NCBI GenBank assembly: GCA_963773045.1 | Contig: CAVYZT010000009.1 | Coordinates: 257,857-321,856, forward strand | Direction: 5' to 3' | Origin: an uncultured Acidobacteriota bacterium | GTDB taxonomy: Bacteria > Acidobacteriota > Vicinamibacteria > Vicinamibacterales > UBA2999 | Length of the DNA: 64,000 nucleotides | In this document: positions 1,207 through 61,860 of the stretch, piece after piece | Numbering within the stretch: the stretch's first letter is position 1 | How the letters are laid out: each line of letters begins with the position of its first letter | Translations under genes and position numbers: made by a program | Notes under the pieces: model-generated | What the model saw: only the letters and a program-made list of their open reading frames with translations | Told to the model about the DNA's origin: nothing | Database searches by the model: none

Positions 1207-1286
1207 GAAGGCAAAAGGCAGAAGGCAAAAGGCAGAACGCCAATTCGCCAGCGCTTTCTGCCTTGTGCCTTGTGCCTTCTGCCTTG
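1207..1286. repeat. Inverted pair of 7-nt-unit tandem arrays (unit GGCARAA)
   Basis: gaaGGCAAAAGGCAGAAGGCAAAAGGCAGAA (1207-1237) faces the near reverse complement TTCTGCCTTGTGCCTTGTGCCTTCTGCCTTG (1256-1286). It is intergenic. Confidence 0.85.
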
Positions 1287-1324
1287 ACTTGCGGGCGGGT
1301 TGTTCAGGCGGCCCGCAGTGGCCC

Positions 1325-1849
1325 CTAGATGCGCGGAGGCGGACGAGGAGAAAACGGACGCCGTCGAGGATCAAGACGACGACGAAGCTCCGGCACTGCT
1401 GGTGCGAGCCGTAGAGTTGAACGGCGCTCGGACGCGCCGAGAAGCCAACTCAGGACCCAGAGGCCCAGCGCGAGCGATCCCGCCGTGGCCGTGATCTGAA
1501 GGACGGCGGTCGCAACCGCCTCCGGCAAAGCCAGCACACCGGATGGGTCGGCGGTCGCAGCGGCTACTGCCGGGCCGTGCAGCAATGCCGCAAGCACCCA
1601 GATGGCAATCCCTTTCCGGCTCAACTGCGATGCGCGCGAGCGGTAAAGGGCGGCAAGACCGGCGGCCAGGGCGGCGGCGACCAACCACCGCAACGCGAGA
1701 CCCGGTTCGGTCAGCCGGCCATCGGCAATCTGCGTCGCCAGCAACCACCCGTGGAAACCCACGAGCGCCGCCCCGCTTAGACCGGTAGCAACCCGGATGG
1801 CGCGTCGGTAGCGTTCTATCCCCCGGAGCGAGGGAGCGGCGGCGGGCAT
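1325..1849 (-). CDS. hypothetical integral membrane protein
   Basis: 174-aa ORF directly downstream of malQ on the same strand. Several Ala/Leu/Trp-rich hydrophobic stretches (LSGAALVGFHGWLLA, WLVAAALAAGLAALY, IAIWVLAALLHG, LALGLWVLSWLLG). No family recognised. Confidence 0.45.
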   Translation of the reverse strand: MPAAAPSLRGIERYRRAIRVATGLSGAALVGFHGWLLATQIADGRLTEPGLALRWLVAAALAAGLAALYRSRASQLSRKGIAIWVLAALLHGPAVAAATADPSGVLALPEAVATAVLQITATAGSLALGLWVLSWLLGASERRSTLRLAPAVPELRRRLDPRRRPFSPRPPPRI

Positions 1850-1914
1850 CGGAGCATTCTATCCGACTCTTTCCTTCTTTCTTTCCCCAGGCTTCTTTCG
1901 TCCCCTGGGTGTCC

Positions 1915-3432
1915 TCAGCGGCCCGCTGAGCGGGTCCACTGGTGCAGGAGTCTTGCCCGCGACATCGTCTCTTGCCGATGGAGCCATTCGTCAACTGGCC
2001 ATGGCAATCGCCACGTCCAATTCAGTTCGTCGACAACGGCAGGTGTGTTGATGCGATCGGTCCAGCCGAAGACGTCTTGCAGCGGCATGAGGGCAAGGTT
2101 GGATCCGGACTCGAGCAGATCGTGCAGCACCGCTTCTCGCTTCTCGTCGGTATCGCCTTCTTCCGTGGCTGCCAGCGGCTCGATATCGTGAGTGCCGGTC
2201 GTCGCCACAGAGAGCGGTGGATAGTCGCGCGGGTCGAGCAGCGGCTGACCCGGCAGATCCCACTCGCGTTCCCAGCGGAGCACTTTCATGCCCGGCAGGC
2301 GCAGACGCTTCATCGATTTGCGAACGAAGGCCGGAATCACGCCGAGATCTTCGGCGATGACCTCCGGCTGCCTCTGATTGGCGGCGGTGGCCTGACCCTG
2401 GTGATCCAAACGAAGAATGCCGACCAGCGATTCCCCAAGCTCGGTCTGCAGCGTTTCCTCGCCGGGCTCGAAGAAGGGCTCGATCGATTCGTCGATCGGT
2501 CGGATGTAGGTTCGGTACAGGCCCACAAGGTGATCGATGCGATAGCCGTCGAAGAGCGCCGCGTAGCGTTTCGCGCGCATGTTCATCCAGGCGAAGCGCT
2601 TGGCGGCCATCACCTCCCACCGCCACGGCGGCAGGCCCCAATCCTGTCCCGTCTCGCTGAACTCGTCAGGAGGAACTCCGATGGTCGCGTCGAACCGGAA
2701 TTCGGGTTGCCGCGCCCAGACATCGGGGCTGTCGGCGGAGATCATGAACGGCAGATCGCCGAAGATTCTCGTCGGCCAGGCGCGGCGCTTCGCCTCGGCC
2801 CACTGCTCCGACGCCGACCACTGCAGGTACTTGTAGTAGGCGATCTCCGTCTCGAGATGCGTGCGCGCCTGGCTAATCGCCTCTGGATCTGCTCGCCGGA
2901 GCTTATCCGGCCACTCCTGCCATCGATGATCGGCAAAGTGCGAATGAAGCGCGCGAAAGGTCGCGTACTCCTCGAGCCACCAGGCTTCACGTCGCGTGAA
3001 GTCGCCGAACTGCATCGCGCGGGCGGAGCCGCGCTGCAGCTCCACTTGAACGAAGCGATCCCATGATCGGCGCAGCCAGCGGTTCTTCACGCGCCTGACA
3101 TCGGCGTAGCGAATCCGCGGAGACTGGCGCAGGACCTCGAGTGCCGCACGGTCGGACGCGTCCAACGCGAGCTCGCCGCCCAGACCGGCGAAGTCCGGAA
3201 GATCAGCCATCGACAAATAGATCGGATCGAGGGCCATCGCCGTCATGGAGGAATACGGCGACCGTTCGATCGGCGGCATCTCGCCAACGGGCAGAATCTG
3301 CAGCACCGCCTGTCCCGCTTCCGCCGCCCAACGAGCGAAGCGCGCCAAGTCGGGAAACTCGCCGATGCCCCACCCGCGCGACGAGGCGAGGGAAAACAGG
3401 GGAACGTTCAGGCCGCTCTCACGGCGGGTCAC
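1915..3432 (-). CDS. malQ: 4-alpha-glucanotransferase (amylomaltase, GH77)
   Basis: 505 aa. GH77 hallmarks are visible: SRGWGIGEFPDL...SPYSSMTAMALDPIYL, RIDHLVGLYR, EDLGVIPAFV..PGMKVLRWE, TGTHD. GTG start overlaps the upstream gene stop (GTGA). Confidence 0.9.
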   Translation of the reverse strand: MTRRESGLNVPLFSLASSRGWGIGEFPDLARFARWAAEAGQAVLQILPVGEMPPIERSPYSSMTAMALDPIYLSMADLPDFAGLGGELALDASDRAALEVLRQSPRIRYADVRRVKNRWLRRSWDRFVQVELQRGSARAMQFGDFTRREAWWLEEYATFRALHSHFADHRWQEWPDKLRRADPEAISQARTHLETEIAYYKYLQWSASEQWAEAKRRAWPTRIFGDLPFMISADSPDVWARQPEFRFDATIGVPPDEFSETGQDWGLPPWRWEVMAAKRFAWMNMRAKRYAALFDGYRIDHLVGLYRTYIRPIDESIEPFFEPGEETLQTELGESLVGILRLDHQGQATAANQRQPEVIAEDLGVIPAFVRKSMKRLRLPGMKVLRWEREWDLPGQPLLDPRDYPPLSVATTGTHDIEPLAATEEGDTDEKREAVLHDLLESGSNLALMPLQDVFGWTDRINTPAVVDELNWTWRLPWPVDEWLHRQETMSRARLLHQWTRSAGR

Positions 3433-4604
3433 GCGTGGACCCCTCGCGTCGCTCGCCGGAGCACGCGCTCAACCGCAGACGTGAATACCGCCGGCTCGAC
3501 GAGCAGGCTCACAACCACGAACGCTTCACGGGCAAAGTCGAAGAAATAGCCTGGGTGTACGAGGACGCCATCACCCTTGAGGATGTCGATGACCAGCGAT
3601 TCCTCGGCGGCGATCGATGGAATCTGAAGCACCGCCGACCAGCCGCCTTCGACGCGAAGCAGGTTCACCGACGGAAACGACTGGACGCGCTGCCGTAGCG
3701 CTTCGAGATTGCTTCTGATCCGTGCTTGAATCTGCTCACGAATCGCGGCGCCGCGCTCGATGAGCGCGGGCGCGGCGATCTGAACCGGCGTCGACACCGA
3801 GAGATAGGTGTCGGCCACGATCTCGTAACTCGACAGCGCCTCATCGACCGCATGGCTTGGGCCGCCAAACCCGATCCAGCCCAGCTTCACCTGCGGCAGG
3901 CCGGCGGATTTCGAGAGACCTCCCAGACTGGCCGTGAGCACTTCCGACTGGCCGAGCACCGAGGACGCGGCAGGGGCAGGATCCAAGGGATAGTCGGCAA
4001 ACACTTCGTCGCCGATGAGCGCACAGCCGTGCCCGGCGCAGACCACTGTCAGCGCGGACAGATCGTCGCGGTGCAGAAACGATCCGGTCGGGTTGTTCGG
4101 AGACACGACGAGAATGGCGCGGACGCGAGGGCCGATCGCCCGCTCGATCGACGCCAGGTCGATGCGCCACGACCCGTGATACTCGAGATCGTAAGGTGTC
4201 GCGACAATCGACTCGAGGCACGTGAGATGTTCGAAGAGCGGATAGCTCGGCCGCGGCACCAGAACGGCGTCACCAGGGTCGCACCACAGCTTGAACAACA
4301 GCGCGTAGGCCTCGCTCGTGCTCGCGGTGATGGCGACACGGTCGGCCGACACCGCGATGCCCCGGCGACGGAAGTCTCCAGCCACGGCGGCTCGAGCCGG
4401 CCACAGGCCCAGCGGTTGCGGGTCGTAGCGCAACGCCTCGGGGTCGGCAAGCGTTGCCAGCAAATCCGGCGGATACACCAGACCGATACGTGTTGGATTC
4501 GACTCGGTGAGATCGACGATGGGCTGGCCGAGGCGCCGCAGCTCGGCGACCGCCCGCGCCAGCGAGTTGGGTTCGAGATTCGACGGCAGGCGCGTGGAGC
4601 GCAT
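3429..4604 (-). CDS. PLP-dependent aminotransferase, class I/II (AlaC/AspC-like)
   Basis: 391 aa. ESNPTRIGL N-terminal motif, SPNNPTG, and the LGGLSKSAGLPQVKLGW Lys-containing PLP motif. Confidence 0.85.
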   Translation of the reverse strand: MRSTRLPSNLEPNSLARAVAELRRLGQPIVDLTESNPTRIGLVYPPDLLATLADPEALRYDPQPLGLWPARAAVAGDFRRRGIAVSADRVAITASTSEAYALLFKLWCDPGDAVLVPRPSYPLFEHLTCLESIVATPYDLEYHGSWRIDLASIERAIGPRVRAILVVSPNNPTGSFLHRDDLSALTVVCAGHGCALIGDEVFADYPLDPAPAASSVLGQSEVLTASLGGLSKSAGLPQVKLGWIGFGGPSHAVDEALSSYEIVADTYLSVSTPVQIAAPALIERGAAIREQIQARIRSNLEALRQRVQSFPSVNLLRVEGGWSAVLQIPSIAAEESLVIDILKGDGVLVHPGYFFDFAREAFVVVSLLVEPAVFTSAVERVLRRATRGVHA

Positions 4605-4663
4605 TTTAGGGCTGGTGAGGCGGGTCGGACAGGTGGGTCGGGTGGGACAACCGAGCTCTCGTT

Positions 4664-6793
4664 TCAGCGTCCGACGAGCTCGACGCGATCGATCACATCC
4701 CCTTCGAGAACGCCGTCCACAACGTCCATCCCTGCGACAACCGTGCCGAAGACCGTGTAGGTGTGGTCGAGCCTGGGTGAATCCACGAGGTTGACGAAGA
4801 TCTGCGCGTCACCGGTGTCGCGGCCACGGGTGGAAATCCCGACGGTGCCGCGAAGATGCAACCCCACCTCGTCTCGCATATAGAGGGTGTCGCCGGCATA
4901 CTCGTTGGCGCCGGGGCTGCCCCCTTGAATGACAAAGTTGGGCGCAACGCGGTGGAACGTGAGTCCGTTGTAGTAGCCTTCGCCGGCCCGCCGGGCGATG
5001 CGCGCGGCCGACAGCGGCGCCGCATCAACGTTCAAGGCGATGTCGAAGGACCTCCCGCCACTCATGAAGAACCGGAGCGACCGCCCGCGTAGTGAATCCA
5101 CGGTGGCTGCAGTGACCCCGGGCGCAGGCAGCGGCTGCGGCGCCGCCGTTCTCGGCTGGTTTGTCCACGCGCTCAGGATCTCCGCCGCCTTCTCGGCGAC
5201 ACGGGGATCGAAGTCTCGAAGATACCCCTCGAGGTCGGTGGCGCGCGCGGTATCGCCGTACGCCTGAAGGCGATTGAGGATCGCCATTCGCGGATCGCGC
5301 GAGGTGTCCTTGTGCTCTTGCGTGATGCGGCCTAACGCGGTCAGCAGCGCGGGCGTGCCGCGAGCCGCGACGCTCGGCTCCGCCAGCGCGCGAGTCGCCG
5401 TGAGGATGAGCTGATAGTCCGGACGCGACAGATCCTCGATGGCGAGCGGAATCGCCTCCGGCCGCTTCAATTCGATGAGCGCCGTGAGCGCAGCCTCGCG
5501 GACGTTGTCGACCCGATCGCGGCCGAGCGTGTTGAGCGCACCGAGATCCGAGAGCACACCGGCCGCTCGAGCCGCGTACATCCGAACCTGCCAGACCGGA
5601 TGCTCCACAAATCGCGGCAGTGCCTTCTGCGCCTGCGCTGGAGACTGCCGCGCGAGCGAAACGATAGCGTGAGCGGGCGCGTGCCAGGAACGAGGCGCAT
5701 TGGAAAGAGTCTCGACGAGAGCCGTGATCTCGGGCACGGCCGCTTCTGCAACAGGGCATCCGGCGCCAAGCAGATCGATGGCCTGCAGCCGGACATGCGT
5801 GTCCGTATCGTTCAGCGCCGCGCGAAGGGGCGCGCACGAAGTCTTCTGGAACTGCCGTCCCCAGCCGCGAAGCGCATCCCAGCGGACCCGCGCATCGCGA
5901 TCGGCCAGCGCGCGCTTCAGCAGCGCGTCGCGGCCCTCAATCGGGGCATCGCCGCTCGCCGCCAGCGCCGCAAGCCGGCGGACCTCCGCGTCGCCATCGA
6001 GCAGCGCGCGATCGATGACCGAAGGCGTCGCTGGTCCACCAGTGACCAGAGCGGACATCGCCAGACGTCGAATGAGTGCCGATCGAGGATCGGCGGCCGG
6101 CCGCTGCGCCGTGGCGGCCCACCGCAGCAATTCCCAGGTCCGCGGCTCGAGCGCACCGATCTTTCTCGAGATCCGGGACAACGACTCGAGCCCGCGCACT
6201 GCTCCAACCAGAGCCGCGGTCTCGACTTCGGTGAACGAATCGGGCGCCGGCAGCCCCCGGGCGAGCACGGCCTCCGCTCTCGACACCTGCTCCGCCGACT
6301 CATAGGGCAGGCGTCCGAGCGCCGCCGCCATCTCACCCCACGATTCCCACGTTTCGAGTTTCGCATCCATCGCCGCGCGTTCGATCAGCAGGCGCTGAAC
6401 TTCTGCGACCGCGGCCGGCGTTCTGGCCATCTGCGCCAGCGCGTTGGCCGCCTCGGCGCGAATGCCGACGCCGTCGCCCAGTGCCGGTGCGACGAGCGGG
6501 ATCAGATCGGCCCGCTCGATCCGGCCAATCGATCGAATGGCCGTTCGCCGCAAGTTGCCGTTCAGCGCCTCGCGCAGAATCGTGATCTGCGTGTCGGTGA
6601 CCGGCCGCGTGTCCTCGGCGATCAATAGCTGATCACGCAACACCAACACAGATTGGGCGGATGACACAGAAACAGAAATACCAGGGCCGCAGATGACACA
6701 GATGACACAGATCAGGCAGACCGGAAGAAAGGCCTGATTAGCTATTGCTTTGATCCAGCAGTGATTAATGCCCGTCTGTGTTATCTGCGTCAT
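4664..6793 (-). CDS. HEAT-repeat protein fused to a C-terminal cyclophilin-type peptidyl-prolyl isomerase
   Basis: The C-terminal ~170 aa are cyclophilin-like (YYNGLTFHRVAPNFVIQGG..GTVGISTRGRDTGDAQIFV..HTVFG). Upstream are repeated Arg/Ala-rich HEAT-like helices (VRRLAALA, ARVRWDALRG, HVRLQAIDLL, WQVRMYAARA). The start is uncertain because the first ~45 codons run through a repeat array and encode a signal-peptide-like LPVCLICVICVICGPG. Confidence 0.8.
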   Translation of the reverse strand: MTQITQTGINHCWIKAIANQAFLPVCLICVICVICGPGISVSVSSAQSVLVLRDQLLIAEDTRPVTDTQITILREALNGNLRRTAIRSIGRIERADLIPLVAPALGDGVGIRAEAANALAQMARTPAAVAEVQRLLIERAAMDAKLETWESWGEMAAALGRLPYESAEQVSRAEAVLARGLPAPDSFTEVETAALVGAVRGLESLSRISRKIGALEPRTWELLRWAATAQRPAADPRSALIRRLAMSALVTGGPATPSVIDRALLDGDAEVRRLAALAASGDAPIEGRDALLKRALADRDARVRWDALRGWGRQFQKTSCAPLRAALNDTDTHVRLQAIDLLGAGCPVAEAAVPEITALVETLSNAPRSWHAPAHAIVSLARQSPAQAQKALPRFVEHPVWQVRMYAARAAGVLSDLGALNTLGRDRVDNVREAALTALIELKRPEAIPLAIEDLSRPDYQLILTATRALAEPSVAARGTPALLTALGRITQEHKDTSRDPRMAILNRLQAYGDTARATDLEGYLRDFDPRVAEKAAEILSAWTNQPRTAAPQPLPAPGVTAATVDSLRGRSLRFFMSGGRSFDIALNVDAAPLSAARIARRAGEGYYNGLTFHRVAPNFVIQGGSPGANEYAGDTLYMRDEVGLHLRGTVGISTRGRDTGDAQIFVNLVDSPRLDHTYTVFGTVVAGMDVVDGVLEGDVIDRVELVGR

Positions 6794-6830
6794 CTGCGGC
6801 CCTGACCCGTGCTATCTGCGTCATCTGTCT
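6658..6830. repeat. Inverted GATGACACA-type arrays flanking an AT-richer core
   Basis: gatgacacagaaacag...cagatgacacagatgacacagat (6658-6712) faces gtctgtgttatctgcgtcatctgcgg...ctatctgcgtcatctgtc (6774-6830). The same unit recurs at 34485 and 36256. Confidence 0.8.
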
Positions 6831-8779
6831 CTTCGGTGTTGTGAGTACTCCAGCATCTGCGTGGCAAGGTCGCAAGGATATGAGATGTCGACGTCGGTGA
6901 TGGCGCCCGTCGCGGCGCGGATGGGCTCGAGCTTCGGCATCACGAAACCCGTATAGGAAGGCAACCCCAGGCGATCGACTCGGCGGACGATCTCGTCGCG
7001 GAGGTCCGGGTCGAAGTGCACGCCGTAGGTTTCGAACAGCACCTTGGCGGCGGCGTAGTCGCCTTCCGACTTGATTCGCTGCACTTCGGTCAACAGCCGG
7101 GCGACGCCCTCGCGGAACTCCACGACGTCGACGACCACGTAATAGGTCTTGCCATCCCGCTGCCGGATCTCGATTGCTCCGGTATGCGCCAGCAGCCAGT
7201 TCACGATCGCCTGGCGATTGCGCATGTGGTCCTCTTCGAGCTGCGTGCCGAGGCGCACCCGCCGGAGCTGGACAAGGGCATTGCGGGCGTACGCTTCGTA
7301 CTCGGCGCGGACGATCGTGTCCTGATCCTCGGCGGAGAGGATGCCGAGCGCGGCGAGATACGGATCGGCGACGAAATAGAGCGCGACCAGATCGGCTCGC
7401 GTCTCTTCGAGCGCCGAGTACTGCTCTTTCAACAGGTCCTGTGGCTGCTCGATCACATCGTCAGCCATGCGGCCGGATCCGTGGCCGAGGACTTCGTGAA
7501 TGTCTGTGGTCAGCTCTCCGGCGAACGCCCCCCAGCGCGTCGCGCGCTCCACCTCGCTTTCGTCCCACGCGAATTCTTCCCGATAGGAAGGCAACGTGGA
7601 ACGCTCGTAGGCGTCCAGTACGTTGGCGAGCGACACCGATTTGCTGCCGAATTCCTCGCGAATCCGCTGATCGTTCGGCAGATTGACGCCAATCGGCGTG
7701 ACCGGTCCGGAGTCGCCGGTCTCGACGACGACCTCGATCGCCATGCCGGTGACACCCTGCACGACCGACTTGCGATAGCGCGCGTCGAAGGGCATGTGAT
7801 CCTCGAACCACTGCGCGTGCTCGGCAATGGTGCGGATCTTCTTCGTCTTCTCGTGGTTGGCGTAATAGACCACGCCTTCCCAGGATCCCTTGACGCCTCT
7901 CGCGTCCATGTAGACCTCGATGAAGCCGTTCATCGTGTCCACGGTCGACTCGCGATTCTGGACCCACGCGATGTCGAAGGCTTCGCGATCGGAGTCGTTG
8001 CCGGACTCGTAGAAGCGGATCAACGCGCGCAGCGCTTTGGCCAGCGGCTCAGGTGCATACCGAGCCGCGTCTTCCAGGTGACGGATGATCCGGCGGATCT
8101 CAACGTCGTAGAGGCCACCGACGCGGTACACCTGCTCGACCAGTCCCCCGTCCTCCTTGACGAGCCGTGAGTTCAGCGGATGACGCTCGACGAAACTCTC
8201 CAGATCGGCCATCGTCGCGCCGCGATACATGTTGTTCGCGCTGCTCGCGAGGATGTCCTGACCCTCTCCGGGGGTCTTGTTCGTGACCATCGGCTCGAAC
8301 GCCGGGTCGAAGAACATCGGCGCCAGCCGATCGATCAGCTCGAGTACACCGCCCTCGAGATCTGTCGACCTGCCTTCGAAGGAGCCAGCGCCATTGCGTC
8401 GCGCGATTTCGGCGGCGGCCAGCAACCGATCGCGATCGAGCCGCAGCGTGAACTTGCGGGCCGTGAGGTTGTTATACGGTCCCGTGTTGATCCAGAAGAG
8501 CTTCGTGTAGCGAGTGATCTCGACGAGCGCCGCCTCGTCGATGCCGCTCGGATGTGTAAGGATGCCTTCGAGCAGGTCGCGCATCTCCAGGTTATGGCGA
8601 TGGCGCTGGTCGTAGTAGATGTCGCGGCCGGCGATCGCGGCCTGGTATAGATGCCAGACCAGAATCTTCTCGTTGAGCGTCAGCGCCGCGAACCCGTCCG
8701 CGTAGACTTGCACGACGGCAGCGTCATCGATCTGCTCCAGCAGGTATGGCCGCCGATCGAGCGGCGTGTCTAGAGGCAT
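6821..8779 (-). CDS. dipeptidyl-peptidase III-like zinc metallopeptidase (family M49)
   Basis: Both M49 signature motifs are present: HEVLGHGSG (HEXXGH) and EETRADLVALY (EEXRAE/D). I place the start at ATG 8779 (MPLDTPLDRRPYLLEQ). The ORF-track extension to 9046 runs through a repeat array and into the neighbouring gene. Confidence 0.8.
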   Translation of the reverse strand: MPLDTPLDRRPYLLEQIDDAAVVQVYADGFAALTLNEKILVWHLYQAAIAGRDIYYDQRHRHNLEMRDLLEGILTHPSGIDEAALVEITRYTKLFWINTGPYNNLTARKFTLRLDRDRLLAAAEIARRNGAGSFEGRSTDLEGGVLELIDRLAPMFFDPAFEPMVTNKTPGEGQDILASSANNMYRGATMADLESFVERHPLNSRLVKEDGGLVEQVYRVGGLYDVEIRRIIRHLEDAARYAPEPLAKALRALIRFYESGNDSDREAFDIAWVQNRESTVDTMNGFIEVYMDARGVKGSWEGVVYYANHEKTKKIRTIAEHAQWFEDHMPFDARYRKSVVQGVTGMAIEVVVETGDSGPVTPIGVNLPNDQRIREEFGSKSVSLANVLDAYERSTLPSYREEFAWDESEVERATRWGAFAGELTTDIHEVLGHGSGRMADDVIEQPQDLLKEQYSALEETRADLVALYFVADPYLAALGILSAEDQDTIVRAEYEAYARNALVQLRRVRLGTQLEEDHMRNRQAIVNWLLAHTGAIEIRQRDGKTYYVVVDVVEFREGVARLLTEVQRIKSEGDYAAAKVLFETYGVHFDPDLRDEIVRRVDRLGLPSYTGFVMPKLEPIRAATGAITDVDISYPCDLATQMLEYSQHRRDR

Positions 8780-8790
8780 CAAGGAGGCAG

Positions 8791-8892
8791 AACCGGGATC
8801 CGGCATCCGGGATCCGGCATCGGAGCGTTCGACGTCTTCGAGATTCCGGTTGTTTGGTACCGGTTCGCGGTTGCCGGTTGCCGGATCCCGGC
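8791..8892. repeat. Inverted 7-nt-unit arrays (CCGGATC / CCGGCAT family)
   Basis: ccgggatccggcatccgggatccggcatcgg faces ccggttcgcggttgccggttgccggatcccgg. It fills the whole intergenic gap between two minus-strand genes. Confidence 0.85.
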
Positions 8893-10266
8893 TCAAAGTC
8901 CCACCTCTACAGTGGTGCCGTAGGAAGGAATCTCCACCGGCCATTTGAGCTCCGAGGTGATGCGGGTCTTCAGCGCTTCCTGCGCTGGCGGTTCTCCGTG
9001 CACGAGGTACGTCATTTTGGCGGGCTTGGGAAACGTCCGCAGCCATCGGATGATCTCGCCGGCATCGGCATGAGCGGACATGCTGTTGAGCTTGTCGATT
9101 TTGGCGCGAACCAATACCTGCTGACCGTACATCTTCACGTAGTGAGCGCCGTCGATCAGTTGCCGGCCGCGCGTCCCGGCCGCCTGGAATCCCACGAACA
9201 ACACGGTGTGGCGAGCGTCGGAAAGGTTGGCAAACAGATGGTGAACGACGCGACCGCCGGTGGCCATACCGCTCGAGGCGATGATGATCGCCGGCTGATC
9301 GTTTTCGACCAGCGCCTTTGACTCCGCGGCCGAGGCAACCGGCCGGAATCGCGGGGCGGCGCGACGCATGGTGGCGACCTCGGGGTCGAGCTCGGCGTCA
9401 TGGTGACGATAGAACTGCAGCGCGCTCAGCGCCATCGGGCTGTCCACGTAGATCGGCAGCGTGGGAATCTGCCTGGCGTCTTCCAGCTTGAAGAGCCAAT
9501 AGAGAAGCTCTTCGACCCGTCCGATGGCAAACGCCGGGATGATCAGCTTGCCGCCGCGCGCATAGGATTCGCTCACCACCTCGGCGAGCCTCGCGCCATC
9601 GTCTTCGTTCGGATGCAGACGATCGCCGTAGGTCGACTCGACCAGGAGCACATCGGCCTCGACACCCGGCGAGGGATCGGGAAGAACGGGCCGGCTGTAC
9701 CGGCCAAGGTCTCCGCCGAACAGGATGCGCCCGCTCGTGCTGTTGCCGCGGCTGACGAGGACATATGCCGACCCAAGCAGATGACCCGCGTTGATGAACT
9801 GCGCCTCGATCCCTGGAGCGATCGGAAGCGGATGCCGGAAGGGATGCGTCACGAAACGAGACAGGGCTTCTGCCGCATCCTCCTTGGTGTAAAGCGGCAA
9901 GGCTGGATCGTGCTTGGAGTAGCCCCTCTTGTTGGCGAACTTCGCGTCCTCTTCCTGGAGGTGTGCCGCGTCAGGCAGGACGAGCTTGCAGAGATCGGCG
10001 GTGGCCGCGGTGCAATGAACCTTGCCTTTGAACCCGCCTCTCACCAGCCGCGGCAGCCACCCGCTGTGATCGATGTGCGCGTGAGTGAGGACTACGGTCT
10101 CGATCGAGTCCGCCGGAACGGGGAGCGGCAGCCAGTTGCGCTGGCGAAGCTCCTTCAGCCCCTGAAACATCCCGCAGTCGAACAGGATGCGATGGCCATC
10201 GACTTCCAAAAGATGTTTGGATCCGGTCACGGTGCGCGCGGCACCCAGAAACGTCAGCGACGCCAT
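8893..10266 (-). CDS. MBL-fold / beta-CASP RNA-metabolising hydrolase
   Basis: 457 aa. N-terminal LTFLGAARTVTGSKHLLE, the MBL motif LTHAHIDHSG, ESTYG, and a C-terminal SAHAD motif typical of beta-CASP nucleases. Confidence 0.85.
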   Translation of the reverse strand: MASLTFLGAARTVTGSKHLLEVDGHRILFDCGMFQGLKELRQRNWLPLPVPADSIETVVLTHAHIDHSGWLPRLVRGGFKGKVHCTAATADLCKLVLPDAAHLQEEDAKFANKRGYSKHDPALPLYTKEDAAEALSRFVTHPFRHPLPIAPGIEAQFINAGHLLGSAYVLVSRGNSTSGRILFGGDLGRYSRPVLPDPSPGVEADVLLVESTYGDRLHPNEDDGARLAEVVSESYARGGKLIIPAFAIGRVEELLYWLFKLEDARQIPTLPIYVDSPMALSALQFYRHHDAELDPEVATMRRAAPRFRPVASAAESKALVENDQPAIIIASSGMATGGRVVHHLFANLSDARHTVLFVGFQAAGTRGRQLIDGAHYVKMYGQQVLVRAKIDKLNSMSAHADAGEIIRWLRTFPKPAKMTYLVHGEPPAQEALKTRITSELKWPVEIPSYGTTVEVGL

Positions 10267-10333
10267 TGCTCGTCACTGGTACTAAAGAATTCAGTGACGG
10301 GCCGTGAGCCATGAGCCGTGAGGGGAAAACAGA

Positions 10334-10585
10334 TTAGAGGAATCGCAACACGGCGGTGATCGCCTTCCCAACGGCGACGGCGAGAGCCTTGACGACCGGC
10401 AGGAGATCTCCGCGCTCGAGAACGCCAGCCGCGGTGACGGGATCGGTGAGCAGCAGCCACAAAGCCGACGCGGACACGGGCGCCAGGACCACCGCGCTCA
10501 CACTCACCGCGCTGAAAATCTTGCGGAACACGCGGCCCTTGGGTGGGGCCACTCGCGGACGATCGGTCTTGGGCCTGGGAGACAT
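10334..10585 (-). CDS. hypothetical small membrane protein
   Basis: 83-aa ATG-initiated ORF. A basic N-terminus is followed by a hydrophobic segment (IFSAVSVSAVVLAPVSASALWLLL). No family recognised. Confidence 0.35.
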   Translation of the reverse strand: MSPRPKTDRPRVAPPKGRVFRKIFSAVSVSAVVLAPVSASALWLLLTDPVTAAGVLERGDLLPVVKALAVAVGKAITAVLRFL

Positions 10586-10746
10586 CGGAGCAATTCGCTA
10601 TCTGTTTAGCGAGGAGCGTACCAACTGAATGATTCGACGTAACTCCAAGCAAACAGGTTGGTTGGGAAAGAACCAGATTTACGCCATCGCTTAGAGGTGT
10701 CCGTTTGTGGGACGCCCGAGTAGCTAGCCGAACACGATTGCTTTGG

Positions 10747-10853
10747 GGCCTTCTGCCTTCTGCCTTCTGCCTTCTGCCTTCTGCCTTCTGCCTTCTGCCT
10801 TTTGCCTTCTGCCTTTGCCTTCTGCCTTCTGCCTTTTGCCTTTGCCTTTTGTC
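10747..10853. repeat. Long direct array of GCCTTCT heptamers with GCCTTTT/GCCTTT variants
   Basis: gccttctgccttctgccttctgccttctgccttctgccttctgccttttgccttctgcctttgccttctgccttctgccttttgcctttgcc. It ends 20 nt before the YciI-like start codon. Confidence 0.9.
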
Positions 10854-10873
10854 TTCCGAGTATCCTGTCGCGC

Positions 10874-11167
10874 ATGTACGCCATGCTCATCGTCCGCTAC
10901 CGCCGCCCGCTCGAAGAGGTCGTCGCTCATCAGGAAGCGCATCGCGCCTTCCAACGGAGACTCAAGGAGGAGGGCACCCTCCTGGCCGCCGGACCTCACG
11001 AGCCACGATTTGGTGGAATGTTTCTGGTCAGGGTCCCCGACGACAACCCGCAGGCCGCTGTCGACGCCATCCGTGACGCGGACCCGGACCATCAGGCCGG
11101 CGTGGTCCAGTACCAGTCGTTGCTATGGAACGTGGTAATCGGCAAAGAAACGCTCGATCGGCTCTGA
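10874..11167 (+). CDS. YciI-family (YCII-related) small protein
   Basis: I place the start at ATG 10874 (MYAMLIVRYRRPLEEV...). The size (97 aa) and the pattern ..LLAAGP....GGMFLVRV......A...I..DP....G.. fit the YciI fold family. The ORF-track start at 10802 lies inside the heptamer array. Confidence 0.7.
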   Translation: MYAMLIVRYRRPLEEVVAHQEAHRAFQRRLKEEGTLLAAGPHEPRFGGMFLVRVPDDNPQAAVDAIRDADPDHQAGVVQYQSLLWNVVIGKETLDRL

Positions 11168-11174
11168 GAGAATC

Positions 11175-13159: not shown

Positions 13160-13171
13160 CAGAGGCTGATC

Positions 13172-17560: not shown

Positions 17561-17568
17561 CGGACATG

Positions 17569-54132: not shown

Positions 54133-54576
54133 CTATTGGGCGATGGCGCGATCGAATGCCGCGAAGCGTTCACGGACATCGTCGTCGTCGTTGAGCACGA
54201 TGCCGCCGTGTTCCACCCACGCGTGCGCCTCGATCTCCGTGCTGGCCTTGCGCACGCCGAATCGGAGCACCGCGTTAATGCCCTGGCGCCGCAACAACCA
54301 CCAGAGAACGACCGAATGCGGCAGGCAGCTGACGCGAAACAACCCTCGTTCCGCTGCCAGCCGCACCAATCGGGTCGTCGCGTGCACTCGTTCGAGTGGG
54401 GAGGACGCGCCGTCCGACGGACGCGGCAGCGTGGTCGAGATCAACGACTGGAGGCGCGCAAAACTGAGCAAGCGAAGCGCGCCGGCCGTGAGCGGCAGCA
54501 GAGCCAGCGCCTGAAGAAATATCCATCTGTCGCGCGGTGACAGTTGGTCGAATGCGCGCCAGCGGTTGAGCCGCAC
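54133..54576 (-). CDS. lasso peptide biosynthesis B2 protein (transglutaminase-like leader peptidase)
   Basis: 147 aa. C..H..D arrangement: RVSCLPHSVVLWWLLRRQGI..LRFGV..EAHAWVEHGGIVLNDD. Confidence 0.85.
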   Translation of the reverse strand: MRLNRWRAFDQLSPRDRWIFLQALALLPLTAGALRLLSFARLQSLISTTLPRPSDGASSPLERVHATTRLVRLAAERGLFRVSCLPHSVVLWWLLRRQGINAVLRFGVRKASTEIEAHAWVEHGGIVLNDDDDVRERFAAFDRAIAQ

Positions 54577-54693
54577 CCGGAAAAGCTACCACGGCATCCG
54601 GGATCCGGCACGCGGCAGACGGCAGATGACAGACGGCCGCTGCGACATCATGCCGCAGGGCGCATCGGAAGTCGCCGACCTAGGATTGAATCC

Positions 54694-55956
54694 ATGCGAT
54701 TGGCGCTTGTCCTTGCCGCACTGATCTCGATTGGTCACTCATTGCTCGCCGGCTCGCCGGGCGAGGTCACTTTCGCGGTCAAGGACCGCGTGAACAGCAC
54801 GCCATGGGTCGCAGCCGCTGGATCGTTCGTCGCGGTGGCGTGGGGCGCGTCGGCGAATGGCAAGGGCGATGTCTACGTCGCCGTCAGCCGTGATGGAGGG
54901 CAGACGTTTGGTCAGCCGGTGCAAGTGAATGCGACCGCTGGCGAGGCCCGGCTCGGTGGCGAGATCCCGCCGCGAGTCGCGCTCCTGACGGCGAACGCGT
55001 CCACCGTTCCCGAGATCGCCGTCTTGTGGAATGCGCGCGGTGAGACCACGTCGATCAAAACGTCTCGATCGCGAGACGGCGGCCGCACGTTCGATCCGCC
55101 AGTCGTCTTGCAGACGATGGGCGCGCCTGGCGATCGGGGTTGGCCTGCACTCGCTCTGGATCAGCAAGGCATCGCACATGCCATCTGGCTGGACCACCGC
55201 GGGCTCGCGGCGGACCGCCTCGAGGGTCACGCGGACCATAAGAGCGCGGGCGAGCATGACGGCGTCGCAATGGCTCAGCGCTCCGGGTTGTACTACGCGG
55301 CAACCGGCCAGTCGTCCTTGCCGCGCGAGCGGGAGCTCTTCAAAGGCGTCTGCTACTGCTGCAAGACCGCGCTCAGTGTCGGGCCCGACGGCGCCGTCTA
55401 TGCCGCGTGGCGGCACGTCTACCAGGGCAACATCCGGGACATCGCCTTTACGGTGTCACGGGACGGTGGTCGATCGTTTTCAGCGCCGGTCCGGGTGAGC
55501 GAGGACAAGTGGGAGCTGAACGGATGCCCAGACGATGGGCCGGCGATGGTGGTGGATGCGCGAGGCACGGTGCACCTGGTCTGGCCCACGCTGATTGGCG
55601 GAACCAATCCGGAAGGCGCCCTCTTCTATGCGTCTTCGCGTGACGGGCGATCGTTCACGCCGCGCGTGCGGATTCCGACGCTTGGCAGCCCGAAGCCGTC
55701 GCACCCCCAAATCGCCATCGACTCGGCCGGCCGCGTCGTCGTCGCGTGGGACGAATCCGTGAATGGCCGCCGAGTGGCTGCGGCGCGGGTCCTGAATCGC
55801 GACGCCGGGCAGCGTGTCGGTGAACCGATCACGCTCGCTGCCGATGGAGCGTCCACGTATCCGGTTCTCGCCGCCACCGACCGGGGAGTGATTGCGGTCT
55901 GGACCACGGGCGGTGAGTCTGCCGTCGTCCGCGCGCGCCAGTTGCTGTTGCCCTAA
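54694..55956 (+). CDS. BNR/sialidase-fold (exo-alpha-sialidase-like) secreted protein
   Basis: ATG 54694 and a signal peptide. Four Asp-box-like repeats: SRDGGQTF, SRDGGRTF, SRDGGRSF, SRDGRSF. Confidence 0.75.
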   Translation: MRLALVLAALISIGHSLLAGSPGEVTFAVKDRVNSTPWVAAAGSFVAVAWGASANGKGDVYVAVSRDGGQTFGQPVQVNATAGEARLGGEIPPRVALLTANASTVPEIAVLWNARGETTSIKTSRSRDGGRTFDPPVVLQTMGAPGDRGWPALALDQQGIAHAIWLDHRGLAADRLEGHADHKSAGEHDGVAMAQRSGLYYAATGQSSLPRERELFKGVCYCCKTALSVGPDGAVYAAWRHVYQGNIRDIAFTVSRDGGRSFSAPVRVSEDKWELNGCPDDGPAMVVDARGTVHLVWPTLIGGTNPEGALFYASSRDGRSFTPRVRIPTLGSPKPSHPQIAIDSAGRVVVAWDESVNGRRVAAARVLNRDAGQRVGEPITLAADGASTYPVLAATDRGVIAVWTTGGESAVVRARQLLLP

Positions 55957-60245: not shown

Positions 60246-61382
60246 ATGTTGATTCTCGAGGCACTCCGCGCAAAGCACGGCGACGCCCTGCTGCTCCACC
60301 ACGGCACCAAAGCCAAGCCGGGATTGATTCTGATCGATGGTGGTCCGCCCGGTGTCTATCCGGATGCAGTGAAGCCGCGTCTCGAGCTACTGCGCCAGGA
60401 GCGGAAGCTCGAGGCGAGCAAACCGCTCGACATCGATCTGCTGATGGTGAGCCACATCGACGAGGATCACATCGCCGGCGTGCTCGAGCTGATGCAGAAG
60501 CTCAAGGATCAGCAGGGGCCGAAGTCCTGGAGGATCCGCCGGTTCTGGCACAACGCGTTCGACGACATCCTCGGGAACACCGACGCCTCGATCGCCACGG
60601 CTACCGGCGCCATGTCGCCGGCGTCACTCGGCGGCGTGCTGGGTCCGGAAGGGTCGCTGGTGCTCACCACCGTCGGACAGGGAAGGGACTTGCGCAAGCT
60701 CGCGGACTTCTTCTCGCTGAAGGGCAATCTGCCCTTCAACGGCTTGGTGATGCAAGGTCATGCGCCAATCAAGATTGGGACGCTCACGCTCACGGTCGTC
60801 GCCCCCGACAAGAAGAACCTCGACAAGCTGCAGAAGGACTGGGACGAGAAGATCAAGCCGATTCTCAAGAAGGAGAAAGCGCACAAGGCGGAGATCGCCG
60901 CGTATATCGACCGATCGGTCTACAACCTGTCGAGCATCGTCGTGCTTGTGGAGTCGGGCGGCAAACGGATTCTGCTCACCGGCGACGGACGCGGCGACCA
61001 CACGCTCAAGGGCATTGCCGCGGCTGGACTACTCGACACCAAAGGCCAGCTTCGCGTCGACGTGCTGAAGTGCCCGCACCATGGAAGCATTCGCAACGTG
61101 AAAGAGGATTACTTCGAAACGATCGTCGCCGACCACTACGTGATTTCGGCGGACGGCAAGTTCGACAACCCCGACGTCGACACGCTTCAGATGATCTCGG
61201 ACATCCGGAAGGACGACAAGTTCACCATCCACCTCACCAATCCATTCGACGCGTTTGCGAAACCCGCTGTCGGCAAAGCCGTCAAGCAGTTTTTTGACAA
61301 GGAGAAGGCCGCGGGACGCAAGTACAAGGTGGTGACGCGAGCGGCGAACGACCTCTCGATTCGCGTGTCGTTGAGCGACTGA
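60246..61382 (+). CDS. stand-alone ComEC/Rec2-type metallo-beta-lactamase-fold hydrolase (putative nuclease)
   Basis: 378 aa with aggag upstream. HGDALLLHHG, LIDGGPPG, LLMVSHIDEDHIAG, LLTGDGRGD and LKCPHHGS mirror the motif order of the ComEC C-terminal MBL domain. No TM segments seen. Confidence 0.7.
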   Translation: MLILEALRAKHGDALLLHHGTKAKPGLILIDGGPPGVYPDAVKPRLELLRQERKLEASKPLDIDLLMVSHIDEDHIAGVLELMQKLKDQQGPKSWRIRRFWHNAFDDILGNTDASIATATGAMSPASLGGVLGPEGSLVLTTVGQGRDLRKLADFFSLKGNLPFNGLVMQGHAPIKIGTLTLTVVAPDKKNLDKLQKDWDEKIKPILKKEKAHKAEIAAYIDRSVYNLSSIVVLVESGGKRILLTGDGRGDHTLKGIAAAGLLDTKGQLRVDVLKCPHHGSIRNVKEDYFETIVADHYVISADGKFDNPDVDTLQMISDIRKDDKFTIHLTNPFDAFAKPAVGKAVKQFFDKEKAAGRKYKVVTRAANDLSIRVSLSD

Positions 61383-61399
61383 TCGAAAAAGCCCCTACG

Positions 61400-61783
61400 C
61401 TACTTCGCGGGCGTGGCGAGCGGCTTGCCCTTTTCCACGATGTAGGTGGAGACGATCGTGGCCGGACCGGTTCCCAGGTTCGTGGCGTTGTGCACCTTGC
61501 CTGCGGGGATGGCGAACGCGTCACCCGGCTTGAGCGTCTTCGAGACACCGTCCATCTCGACGGCGACGCTGCCTTCGAGCAAGTAGCCGATTTCCTCGCC
61601 CGGATGCGTGTGGCGGCCGGCCGATGCTCCCCCTGGGAACTCCGCCTTCGCCGTCACGGCTTGCCGGTCGGCGATGGACAGGTCCACCGTCTGCAGCACG
61701 GTGCGCTTGAACGCCGGCTGCTGCGCGAGGACCGCAGTCGCCGTCACGAGAACGAGCAAAGCCACGAACCATTTTTTCGACAT
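61400..61783 (-). CDS. secreted cupin-domain protein
   Basis: 127 aa with a signal peptide. GRHTHPGEEIGYLLEG ... GDAFAIPAGKVHNATN are the cupin motifs. Confidence 0.8.
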   Translation of the reverse strand: MSKKWFVALLVLVTATAVLAQQPAFKRTVLQTVDLSIADRQAVTAKAEFPGGASAGRHTHPGEEIGYLLEGSVAVEMDGVSKTLKPGDAFAIPAGKVHNATNLGTGPATIVSTYIVEKGKPLATPAK

Positions 61784-61792
61784 GAGATCTCC

Positions 61793-61860
61793 AGTCAGCT
61801 TTCAGCTATCGGCTATCAGCTATCAGCAAAAGCTTGTGCCGAAAGCTGAGAGCCGACTGC
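61793..61860. repeat. Inverted arrays, unit CAGCTAT
   Basis: cagtcagctttcagctatcggctatcagctatcagc faces gccgaaagctgagagccgactg. Confidence 0.8.

Follow-up and report, generated by a model that had tools for sequence, protein, structure and literature searches.

Several families of short tandem repeats described in bacteria resemble the arrays reported here. STRR repeats are heptameric, and slipped-strand mispairing is the proposed origin of heptameric LSSRs (Mrazek 2007, as represented in PMC4679880 and PMC4692102). Xanthomonas genomes carry 70–75 convergent inverted pairs of GGGAATC arrays each (PMC4692102), and the stem of the Coxiella intervening sequence holds copy-number-variable heptamers (GACAGAT) at a mapped RNase III site (PMC4990558). 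In a soil acidobacterium (Vicinamibacterales, Acidobacteriota), analyzed here over a 64-kb stretch of DNA (the window), the gaps between genes are home to tandem repeats of 7–9 nt, and these arrays belong to the same known kind as STRR, the heptameric LSSRs and the Xanthomonas pairs. The first-pass annotation of the window had named STRR as the closest analogy, which is apt, but the Xanthomonas arrays are closer. It had also been aware of no description for this lineage; none for Acidobacteriota was found in the searchable literature, and the kind appears to be undescribed there.

Tandem arrays are present at all 18 loci that the annotation had listed, within a few bases of where it had placed them (TRF and sequence inspection). 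At a threshold of score ≥40 and ≥2.8 copies, TRF returned 14 period-7, two period-8, one period-9 and one period-14 rows, while 30 dinucleotide-preserving shuffles gave ∼0.3 rows per shuffle of any period and none of period 7. The strict 7-nt period claimed for the arrays holds for those 14 rows, but GATGACA(CA) has a period of 9 and the CGGAGAC and GATC-rich loci are of period 8 or irregular, so that the class is one of 7–9 nt. An inverted partner arm is found at 11–12 of the 18 loci (about two thirds), giving arm-spacer-inverted-arm hairpins, and the RNA folds of paired arrays are much more stable than those of shuffles (z −3.3 to −8.2); pairing at most loci is thus upheld, although four loci are unpaired. 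Rfam gave no matches for the arrays. Similarity among the intergenic regions, as judged by BLAST of these regions against each other, is practically limited to the arrays. Canonical units recur across loci (AGGGATC at six, ACTCCCG at four), AAGGCAG and AGCTATC units are also present in other genomes, and the purine-rich arm comes first in 28 of 38 ORF-less pairs (p = 0.005), the TTCGC family having a polarity opposite to that of the other pairs. Such recurrence and polarity argue against the sequence-independent mechanism that had been suggested.

The intergenic BLAST comparison groups 1207–1286, 10748–10856 and 13176–13203 in an AAGGCAG family. The first, between two minus-strand genes, pairs (AAGGCAR)x4 with (TGCCTTS)x4 across a 21-nt spacer and folds at −51.3 kcal/mol (z −7.3). 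The longest array, (GCCTTCT)x16 on the plus strand at 10748–10856, is unpaired and, in a gap between divergent genes, immediately precedes a YCII-family gene. The relatives L083, L081 and L082 have (GTCTTCT)x∼6, (CCGGTTG)x3 and nothing, respectively, at the orthologous site. The minus-strand (AAGGCAG)x4 upstream of an SSF transporter gene (13176–13203, unpaired over 13177–13203) illustrates how array copy numbers differ between syntenic relatives, with 4 copies in the window, 2 in L081, ∼1.5 in L083 and 0 in L082. A second family, CCGGGATCCGGCA, comprises 8791–8891, 14878–15032 and 54592–54610. In the gap between the M49 peptidase and beta-CASP genes, 8791–8891 pairs (CCGGGATCCGGCAT)x2 with (GGTTGCCGG..GATCCCGG) (z −5.2), and the same junction is graded in relatives, from nothing in L082 through a short array in L083 to one arm in L081. 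The divergent promoter region at 14878–15032 holds (CCGGGATCCGGCAA)x7 paired with (GCTGCCGGATGCCG)x2.6 (z −4.7), where L083 has one single CCGGGATCCGGC, and the compound CGGCATC/CGGCAGA array of the CCGG family at 54592–54637 also lies in a divergent intergenic region. Since 10748, 14878 and 54592 are all in gaps between divergent genes, a position exactly between stop and start codons is not universal. Placement is largely intergenic, as claimed, except that a plus-strand CCGG-family array of 63 nt (15807–15869) is in frame within the penicillin-amidase ORF, in a hypervariable linker (residues 254–275).

Units of 9 nt form the arms (CAGATGACA at 6686–6712, TGTCATCTG-like at 6775–6800) of the long hairpin at 6657–6820, which separates a PPIase/HEAT gene from the M49 peptidase gene; L081 and L083 keep the arms around a different interior, and L082 is without the element, its two genes overlapping there. 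This CAGATGACA family (6686–6800, 34483–34734 and 36256–36296) includes outer arms (CACAGATGA)x3 and (TCATCTGTG)-like around nested near-perfect palindromes at 34483–34734 (total fold ∼−150 kcal/mol), and what had been taken for an array at 34592 is instead part of this nest. The plus-strand solo arm of the CACAGATGA family at 36256–36296 is unpaired and matches 34482–34521 across 41 nt, including the non-repeat AATGCCTGTCAT. In the CACGGAGAC family (17567–17589 and 22964–22986), a paired 8-nt array, (CACGGAGA)x3 with (TCTCCGCG)x3, lies between convergent genes at 17567–17674 (z −3.3); its weak relation (GTCTCCGC)x2 at 22964–22986, entered as an array at 22958, has only about two copies. The TTCGC family (19493–19509 and 40663–40679) is represented by (TTCGCNN)x5 paired with (NNGCGAA)x4 at 19430–19509 (z −4.2), a hairpin conserved in L081, L082 and L083 with 3–5 copies per arm in the four genomes, and by (CGCTCTT)x3.4 with (GCGAACC)x4.7 around a ∼100-nt spacer at 40648–40813. 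Further loci are a short unpaired (GCCGTGA)x3 at 10296–10322 (unpaired over 10301–10322), a ∼200-nt GATC-rich hairpin at 11174–11373, whose units are 8 nt long or irregular and which separates convergent genes and is kept in L081, and (TCAGCTA)x4.7 at a gene boundary (61795–61827), whose unit is identical in L022. After the stop codon of a TonB-dependent receptor gene, (GGTGCCA)x4 and (TGGCACN)x4 (32479–32558) fold at −71.1 kcal/mol (z −8.2), the sole locus with a short T-run (TTTT) behind the stem.

Enrichment at gene boundaries extends beyond the window. Related high-GC loci totalling 1.12 Mb contain 64 period-7, 30 period-8 and 15 period-9 arrays in their intergenic DNA (123 kb) and 12, 4 and 6 in their coding DNA (994 kb), a ∼43-fold enrichment between genes. 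One orthologous intergenic region in ∼30 relatives carries paired arrays with at least eight different units, bearing out the earlier view of a constant architecture built from varying units, and left arms there are similar to conserved sequence beside the start codon. As shown by comparison between relatives, arrays expand in situ from single-copy local seeds, which points to ordinary slipped-strand mispairing rather than to an unknown mechanism. Arrays also appear at sites where relatives' genes overlap, and the elements, judged by such alignments, are therefore dispensable and turn over rapidly.

Small genes of the family PF05635, the '23S rRNA intervening-sequence protein' (S23p), are found between inverted arrays of the same kind. 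In L005, L006 and L029 the orthologous counterpart of window positions 19409–19511 contains a PF05635 gene (E 4e-31) bracketed by inverted GGGATCR arrays. Period-7 or period-8 arrays occur within 250 nt of 54 of 56 metagenomic S23p loci, and where both flanks are available they are inverted-complementary in 39 of 47 (83%), as against 13 of 738 ordinary genes (1.8%). Xanthomonas XCC0516 orthologues are bracketed by GGGAATN/ATTCCCN, S23p also lies between inverted arrays in Nostoc edaphicum, Calothrix, Anabaena, Geminocystis and Riemerella, and the Azospirillum 23S rRNA intervening sequence has the same framing; in Gemmatirosa the inverted score exceeds shuffles with less clear-cut arms, and Nostoc PCC 7120 has the downstream arm only. 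Arms upstream of S23p tend to be rich in G (28:7) and those downstream in C (37:10), S23p sequence clusters follow unit family and period, and ORF-less arrays neighbouring S23p loci share the unit of the S23p arms. The median array has ∼6 units, the inverted-array architecture encloses genes of 0.3–6.4 kb, and the cargo between arms is found in flipped orientation between close relatives. This framing of S23p across several phyla looks new, and it connects a long-standing puzzle, the heptamer repeats of bacteria, with rRNA intervening sequences (IVS). The link escaped the first-pass annotation, outside data being needed to see it.

The window pairs and the S23p cassettes appear to have a common architecture, shown in part: 7–8-nt tandem units, an inverted partner, polarity and a flush intergenic position, with an identical unit in two cases (CCGGGAT flanks S23p in L084, L085, L090 and L135, and (C/T)TCTGCC in Nostoc PCC 7120). 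This architecture, together with the S23p cassette at an orthologous site in three relatives, is why we read the window pairs as IVS-like stem elements that lack an ORF, are built by slippage and, once transcribed, are probably cleaved by RNase III, a reading to which we give an even chance. In this account the arrays are Acidobacteriota members of the bacterial 'heptamer-type' simple-sequence arrays with units of 7–9 nt. In the common form, a purine-rich arm, a spacer and a complementary arm, slipped-strand mispairing adds and removes units, and the arms may stay complementary through recombination or gene conversion between them or through selection for pairing, either of which fits the flipped cargo. 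Upon transcription of the surrounding genes the arms would pair into an extended stem of double-stranded RNA, mismatched once every 7 nt, and RNase III would cut it by analogy with rRNA intervening sequences and their terminal stems, for which the Coxiella heptamers are a precedent. The transcript would be severed between cistrons and the insert removed, which would account for operons tolerating such insertions. A borderline hint at the RNA level is that, of 21 co-directional hairpins, 15 fold more stably as the sense strand (Wilcoxon p = 0.06, some data points being mutually orthologous). Long unpaired arrays in promoter or 5′-leader positions would be by-products of slippage that at most tune expression via copy number. 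Against the IVS-like reading, no S23p gene lies in the window, the internal mismatches, which recur every 5–6 bp, might block RNase III cleavage, growth from local seeds requires neither cassette nor protein, the TTCGC family runs counter to the shared polarity, and at the three divergent-gene loci a transcript spanning both arms is not assured. Of the ∼9 unit families in the window, only two correspond to arms known from S23p loci, and in L005, L006 and L029 the nearby ORF-less arrays differ in unit from the S23p arms.

Growth in situ with changing copy number would also be expected if the arrays are functionless mutational by-products, the polymerase slipping preferentially on intergenic 7–9-nt units and quasi-palindrome template switching making the palindromes, with S23p having no true kinship and landing or surviving in hairpin loops. 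This is possible but doubtful. Close relatives lacking arrays with no visible consequence, the array tolerated in the penicillin-amidase linker and the ascription of heptamer excess in many genomes to polymerase slippage (Mrazek 2007, as represented in PMC4679880 and PMC4692102) are consistent with it; however, the same units turn up at unlinked sites and in separate genomes much more often than ∼1170 possible canonical heptamers lead one to expect, arm polarity is consistent, inverted arrays bracket S23p far more often than other genes, protein clusters follow unit families in a way that passive landing does not predict, and the TTCGC hairpin is kept in four genomes at ∼84% protein identity. 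Host-selected elements at transcript 3′ ends, whether factor-independent terminators or exonuclease-blocking stem-loops likened to REP elements in E. coli operons, with the tandem structure incidental, are unlikely. Most pairs start a few bases from a stop codon, folds are very stable, 15 of the 21 co-directional hairpins fold better as the sense strand (p = 0.06) and TTTT follows 32479–32558, but terminator-like stem-plus-T-run sites are not enriched (14 found, 11.5 ± 3.3 expected), pairs lie between divergent genes (14878 and 54592) and at junctions whose relatives have translationally overlapping genes, and an architecture that encloses whole genes is unlike a terminator.

We consider it very unlikely that the arrays are tandem DNA or RNA binding sites for an oligomeric protein in a regulatory network or nucleoid-organizing system, for which a pentameric S23p ring contacting one unit per subunit would be the candidate. 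S23p forms a homopentamer in which each subunit is a four-helix bundle (PDB 2gsc; PMC4990558), it also matches PF22296 and is a homologue of Avd, a DGR protein that binds nucleic acids (PMC10053308), its clusters vary together with the family and period of the units, the median array length would suit such a ring, and a post-transcriptional regulator has been proposed for TAACTGA repeats (PMC4679880); yet ∼9 unit families in the window would demand several specificities, a search for an S23p gene in the 64-kb window found none, and the co-variation is possibly mere co-inheritance. There is next to no likelihood that the arrays are artefacts of sequencing or assembly, or that they represent degenerate CRISPR, MITE or G-quadruplex elements. 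Short-read assemblies are error-prone at repeats and CCGGGAT units contain G3 runs, but assemblies made independently in different projects share orthologous arrays, unique CRISPR-sized spacers are absent, interiors differ between copies and target-site duplications were not noticed at aligned junctions, most units are without G-runs, and Rfam is silent on all of them.

The arrays also bear on gene calling. At one array-bearing junction in L081, the genes as called share 4 nt. False N-terminal extensions, suspected earlier on at least eight genes, are plausible: the longest ORFs at seven places (4664–6793, 6821–9046, 11471–13204, 13406–14932, 34626–36107, 38753–40717 and 54544–55956) run into arrays, and their starts as predicted from codon usage fall outside them.

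The tandem arrays of the window are real. TRF rows were recovered at every locus tabulated by the first-pass annotation, with the sequences reading as it described them, and at a cut-off of score at least 40 and at least 2.8 copies they comprise 14 period-7, two period-8, one period-9 and one period-14 rows, compared with no period-7 row in 30 dinucleotide-preserving shuffles of the window, which averaged ∼0.3 rows each over all periods. A 7-nt period, originally ascribed to the whole class, is correct for the 14 rows, the real span of the class being 7–9 nt, and the entries at 22958 and 34592 are weak or no arrays. Intergenic-versus-intergenic BLAST of the window reveals five multi-locus unit families (AAGGCAG, CCGGGATCCGGCA, CACGGAGAC, TTCGC and CAGATGACA), and similarity between spacers is essentially limited to the arrays themselves. 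An inverted partner arm is present at 11–12 of the 18 loci; the hairpin pairing claimed for most loci does not extend to the longest array, (GCCTTCT)x16, nor to those at 13177–13203, 10301–10322 and 36256–36296, all of which are unpaired. Where both arms are present the stems follow the repeat, with 5–6 paired and 1–2 mismatched bases per unit, and six representative pairs compared with their own shuffles give fold z of -3.3 to -8.2, the lowest energy being -81 kcal/mol. For the nested 34483–34734 pair the fold energy is about -150 kcal/mol, a single value without shuffle comparison. Most arrays occupy gene boundaries, as had been noted from the sequence, the exception being a CCGG-family array at 15807–15869 that runs in frame within the penicillin-amidase gene, where it encodes residues 254–275 of a hypervariable linker at which orthologues differ in both length and sequence. 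The more specific statement that arrays lie between stop and start codons fails for three loci, whose flanking genes are divergent.

A 41-nt direct repeat at window 34482–34521 and 36256–36296, composed of the CACAGATGA arm and the non-repeat AATGCCTGTCAT, flanks a PQQ-propeller gene (34836–36107) that also scored positive for inverted-complementary flanks, and 34540–34700 contains near-perfect palindromes nested within the outer arms (e.g. ACGAAGACACGGAGACCGCCAGATGAGAGTC ... GACTCTCATCTGACGGTCTCCGTATCTTCGT), giving a multi-hairpin of about -150 kcal/mol. At 36684–36757, (CTCGCGAGCACGAGA)x2.5, a perfect repeat with a 15-nt unit, precedes (TTCTTTC)x4.7 in a stretch modelled as coding; the ORFs around it (36332–36811 and 36781–37533) overlap and gene boundaries there are uncertain.

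The enrichment of such arrays between genes is not confined to the window. Gene calling by a codon-usage model across 63 high-GC loci (1.12 Mb in total, 89% coding) places 64 period-7, 30 period-8 and 15 period-9 arrays in 123 kb of intergenic sequence, against 12, 4 and 6, respectively, in 994 kb of coding sequence. The intergenic preference suggested earlier for period 7 is therefore borne out at ∼43-fold over these loci, with periods 5, 6, 10 and 11 almost absent. Canonical units recur across genomes (AGGGATC at six loci, ACTCCCG at four), AAGGCAG and AGCTATC being common to the window and others. These properties are those of heptameric LSSR5-11, namely head-to-tail units of 5–11 bp that run longer than composition predicts and, where the unit is not a multiple of 3, lie mainly in non-coding DNA. 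It has been proposed that heptameric LSSR(5-11) arise by polymerase slippage (Mrazek 2007, as summarised in PMC4679880 and PMC4692102), and in the same accounts heptameric LSSR/STRR are over-represented in the large genomes of free-living bacteria (PMC4692102, PMC4679880).

The inverted arrangement is that described for Xanthomonas, in which GGGAATC gives ∼186 heptamer occurrences per genome, with 70–75 convergent inverted pairs (Rehm et al. 2015, PMC4692102), and in which the arrays are overwhelmingly intergenic, show no IS-element association and differ in length between species with the single or paired type retained (PMC4692102). At 11–12 window loci, two arrays built of a common heptamer likewise converge as inverted copies in a single intergenic region. 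A single G-rich unit predominates in Xanthomonas and was read as G-quadruplex-forming, whereas the window has ∼9 unit families with periods of 7–9 nt; only the CCGGGAT family contains G3 runs and the other units have none, which argues against a G-quadruplex explanation here. The window arrays are thus multi-family heptameric LSSRs and also include Xanthomonas-type inverted pairs. The parallel with cyanobacterial STRRs drawn by the first-pass annotation is sound as an analogy, both being tandem heptamers of few unit families per genome in intergenic positions. It does not amount to membership, as the organism belongs to the Vicinamibacterales and AAGGCAG, CCGGGAT, TTCGCNN and GGTGCCA are not known as STRR1-3 consensus units. 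That annotation also knew of no description for this lineage, and none was found for Acidobacteriota in the literature covered, most subscription journals being outside it.

Array lengths in related genomes, a comparison raised at the outset, differ site by site between window 4664–22952 and three syntenic loci (L081–L083, ∼84% protein identity). The (TTCGCNN)n/(NNGCGAA)n hairpin at the DUF7990|DUF5916 junction is shared by all four genomes, its arms having 3–5 copies each. At the PPIase/HEAT|M49 junction the CAGATGACA arms are kept in three genomes around a varying interior, and are missing in L082, in which the two genes share 4 nt. The M49|beta-CASP junction provides a graded series, from none in L082 through a short CCGG-rich stretch in L083 and one arm in L081 to the full 113-nt pair in the window. 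Upstream of YCII the window and its relatives carry (GCCTTCT)x16, (GTCTTCT)x∼6, (CCGGTTG)x3 or nothing, and (CCGGGATCCGGCAA)x7 in the window corresponds to a single CCGGGATCCGGC at the same place in L083. The arrays are dispensable, with turnover at roughly the genus level, and their growth and shrinkage in place indicates that they expand and contract as slipped-strand mispairing predicts. Recombination between arms may in addition keep the two arms of a pair homogeneous.

Array mobility would offer another origin for the pairs. BLAST similarity between them lies only within the arrays, with the exception of one 41-nt match, which argues against mobile copies in general and, there being no conserved interior, against MITEs in particular. 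Clean insertion of the M49|beta-CASP pair is contradicted by the aligned junction, which records graded growth in situ and at which no target-site duplications were noticed. Of the other known elements considered, intrinsic terminators are disfavoured in that stem plus T-run sites number 14 against 11.5 ± 3.3 expected, with a TTTT tail only at 32479–32558. CRISPR arrays consist of 23–50-nt repeats with unique spacers, as opposed to the contiguous 7–9-nt units seen here, and the window gives no Rfam covariance-model match at gathering score. REP/REPIN elements are short intergenic palindromes in many copies per genome, each a single 20–40-nt palindrome with a conserved head, and they share with the present arrays a short palindromic intergenic form, high copy number and an associated gene bracketed by inverted copies. 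The finding that RAYT genes are flanked by inverted REPs, by Nunvar in 2010 and by Bertels and Rainey in 2011, was reportedly a clue linking REPs to RAYTs. The window units are nevertheless tandem 7–9-mers and not single palindromes, and the REP/REPIN assignment is rejected on these grounds.

The DUF7990|DUF5916 spacer was followed across about 30 genomes and takes several forms. It is empty (at most 27 nt) in five genomes and has single arms in two, and ORF-less pairs elsewhere are built of TTCGCNN, AGTCGGG, TAGGCTC, ACACGAAG or GGGATCA. In three relatives, at the orthologue of window 19409–19511 (L005:5004–5699; L006:9087–9549; L029:7507–8090), inverted (GGGATCR)n arrays enclose a ∼120-codon gene. 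With E = 4e-31 it falls in PF05635, the ‘23S rRNA intervening-sequence protein’ family, for which S23p and ‘four helix bundle protein’ are other names. In L013, L017 and L009 the cargo measures 6.4 kb (L013:7433–13873), 0.57 kb (L017:7856–8420) and 0.3 kb (L009:14384–14683), and lies between inverted arrays of 18–19-nt units (GTCGGGAGGGNAC...); by eye, that of L017 includes a short ORF whose C-terminus is RHH/HicB-like. A small conserved palindrome spans the DUF7990 start codon (19409–19425). Its sequence is GGCGATgatATCGCC in the window and CCCGAtcatagTCGGG in relatives, and its 3′ half is similar to the first array unit, which suggests that the palindrome may be the seed of array growth.

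S23p is an Avd-like four-helix-bundle protein, and the arrangement found in the three relatives proved to be general. A metagenome scan with an S23p alignment yielded 56 loci, 54 of which have period-7/8 arrays at most 250 nt from the S23p ORF, and flanks are significantly inverted-complementary at 39 of the 47 loci having both. The identical flank test, applied to 738 ordinary genes taken from the high-GC loci, was positive for 13 (1.8%), two of them S23p genes. Upstream arrays are mostly G-rich (28 loci, against 7 with a C-rich array) and are followed by a ∼132-nt leader and the ORF; downstream arrays start ∼19 nt past the ORF and are mostly C-rich (37 loci, against 10 with a G-rich array). 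The unit measures 7 nt in 38 arrays and 8 nt in 45, with a median of 5.9 copies. S23p sequence clusters follow unit family and period, and the ORF-less arrays near a cassette have the same unit as its arms. In three independent comparisons (L005/L006, L088/L096 and L097/L107) S23p of related genomes points in opposite directions between the same neighbours, consistent with either re-insertion or an inversion of the cargo in which the two inverted arrays recombined.

The same bracketing is seen in cultured organisms. Orthologues of the crystallised S23p of X. campestris (XCC0516, PDB 2gsc) lie between accB and accC (L141:1425–1866; L147:1487–1930), with the upstream arm GGGAATC GGGAGTG GAGAATC GGGAATC and the downstream arm CCCATTC CCCATTC CCGACTC CCTATTC. 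These arms are the very heptamers counted by Rehm et al. 2015, where the gene goes unmentioned (PMC4692102). Inverted heptamer arrays also flank S23p in Nostoc edaphicum (nrdB-nrdA, L148), Calothrix, Geminocystis and Riemerella, and less clearly in Gemmatirosa. S23p of Anabaena sp. 90, again between inverted heptamer arrays, sits between cas6 and cas4 (L150), a position that may explain why ‘23S rRNA IVP’ was included among CRISPR-associated genes in a CRISPR-discovery study (PMC10910872). Plasmid-borne S23p genes are mostly those of Nostoc, Calothrix and Anabaena, and the genes on these plasmids lie between inverted heptamer arrays, in contrast to GGGGA(C/T)T, the one Nostoc family considered in PMC4692102, for which inverted pairing was reported there to be rare. 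The downstream arm in Nostoc PCC 7120 is (C/T)TCTGCC, the first unit family of the window. In Azospirillum, helix 45 of 23S rRNA contains an S23p ORF between inverted GAGGACG/GATGACA arrays, as judged by eye (L153). S23p cassettes, i.e. the S23p ORF between inverted arrays, are therefore found both inside conserved operons, between cistrons, and in helix 45. Bracketing of S23p by inverted heptamer or octamer arrays native to the genome spans at least six phyla, and was seen in Acidobacteriota, Gemmatimonadota, Cyanobacteria, Bacteroidota, Alphaproteobacteria and Gammaproteobacteria.

In S23p-bearing rRNA intervening sequences (IVS), terminal inverted repeats form a stem that is cut by RNase III (PMC4990558), and the Coxiella IVS stem has copy-number-variable heptamers (GACAGAT) at the mapped RNase III cleavage site, their number differing between strains (PMC4990558). 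Beyond this Coxiella observation the bracketing rule appears to be unreported in the literature covered, although most subscription journals lie outside it and earlier work may exist.

Whether the ORF-less pairs of the window belong with S23p cassettes depends on how these similarities are weighed. The two are alike in architecture and in placement flush between genes, inside operons. Of 38 ORF-less pairs, 28 start with the purine-rich arm (p = 0.005), a polarity they share with S23p cassettes, and the window pairs resemble IVS/S23p stems in having terminal inverted repeats of tandem 7–8-nt units with the purine/G-rich arm first. One window array site has an orthologue occupied by an S23p cassette, and two of the window's units, CCGGGAT and TTCTGCC, recur exactly in the arms beside S23p genes elsewhere. 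On the other hand, rRNA IVS (Coxiella, Leptospira and others) carry the S23p ORF within rRNA, whereas the window elements are ORF-less and lie between protein-coding genes, tblastn detecting no S23p (PF05635) gene in the 64 kb. Most window units are without a known S23p partner, the ORF-less arrays near the L005, L006 and L029 cassettes have units unlike the cassette arms, and growth in situ from local seeds requires no cassette. The Vicinamibacterales comparison loci contain only three copies of S23p, all at one orthologous site, and S23p therefore cannot be an in-cis component of most arrays. Shared features set against these counter-points allow us to call kinship between the window pairs and S23p cassettes likely, but close to evenly balanced.

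More speculatively, S23p cassettes and ORF-less inverted 7–8-nt arrays could be two forms of one widespread, unrecognised element family, with S23p as the cognate protein of its genome's arrays, in a relation like that of RAYT to REPINs. One foldback-like system, which inserts between cistrons, is removed from transcripts via its stem and is able to invert or exchange cargo, would then underlie STRRs, the GGGAATC repeats of Xanthomonas, the arrays of Vicinamibacterales and rRNA IVS alike. We offer this wider proposal tentatively and consider it rather unlikely. RAYT is a transposase, whereas the S23p four-helix bundle has no known nuclease or transposase motif. Eukaryotic foldback (FB) transposons have long terminal inverted repeats of short tandem subrepeats, with variable, unequal arms and a variable or absent middle; they are eukaryotic elements, some copies encode transposase, and their likeness to the arrays implies no homology.

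At the RNA level, by extension from rRNA IVS, the only elements for which such RNase III excision is known (PMC4990558), a transcript crossing a paired array would be expected to form a long stem and to be cut there by RNase III, a cut that would separate the cistrons and excise any cargo. Tolerance of insertions at accB-accC, nrdB-nrdA and M49|beta-CASP would follow from stem cleavage of this kind. Among 21 co-directional hairpins, the sense-strand RNA folds more stably in 15 (p = 0.06, some loci being mutual orthologues; 5 of 8 in the window alone), which is compatible with RNA-level selection but suggestive only. For the long unpaired arrays of promoters and leaders, neutrality is one possibility and tuning of expression via copy number another. 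Copy number of heptamer SSRs upstream of Haemophilus influenzae hmw1A/hmw2A modulates expression with the involvement of RNase III (PMC12721329), and Beggiatoaceae TAACTGA repeats are mostly just upstream of start codons (PMC4679880). The (GCCTTCT)x16 array upstream of YCII is similarly an unpaired heptamer array in a promoter/5′-leader position; unlike those examples, it has a different unit in each relative. Sigma-70-type promoter-like sites number zero in window 1–20000, against 3.0 ± 1.7 in shuffles, and the consensus of this lineage may differ.

As far as we are aware, bacterial heptamer repeats have been catalogued in 1990 (STRR), 2007 (LSSR) and 2015 (Xanthomonas) with origin and function both unexplained, and S23p, whose crystal structure dates from 2006, still has no known function. 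The bracketing rule opens both puzzles to tests in the tractable Xanthomonas and Nostoc. The protein complement of the window, with CarboxypepD_reg/OMP_b-brl_4 receptors, DUF5916 and Ser/Thr kinase-TPR proteins, is that of a typical acidobacterium, the closest penicillin amidase relatives being from Vicinamibacterales MAGs, and the phenomenon thus extends to an abundant, poorly studied soil phylum, in which arrays take a large share of intergenic space and mislead start-codon choice by gene callers. In practice, such arrays should be masked in high-GC metagenome-assembled genomes before start codons are chosen. Period-7/8 arrays are also present in distant loci fetched via the penicillin-amidase query, from Cytophagales (L074, L080) and Gemmatimonadetes (L052), for example (AGGAAGC)x14 at L080:13674–13773.
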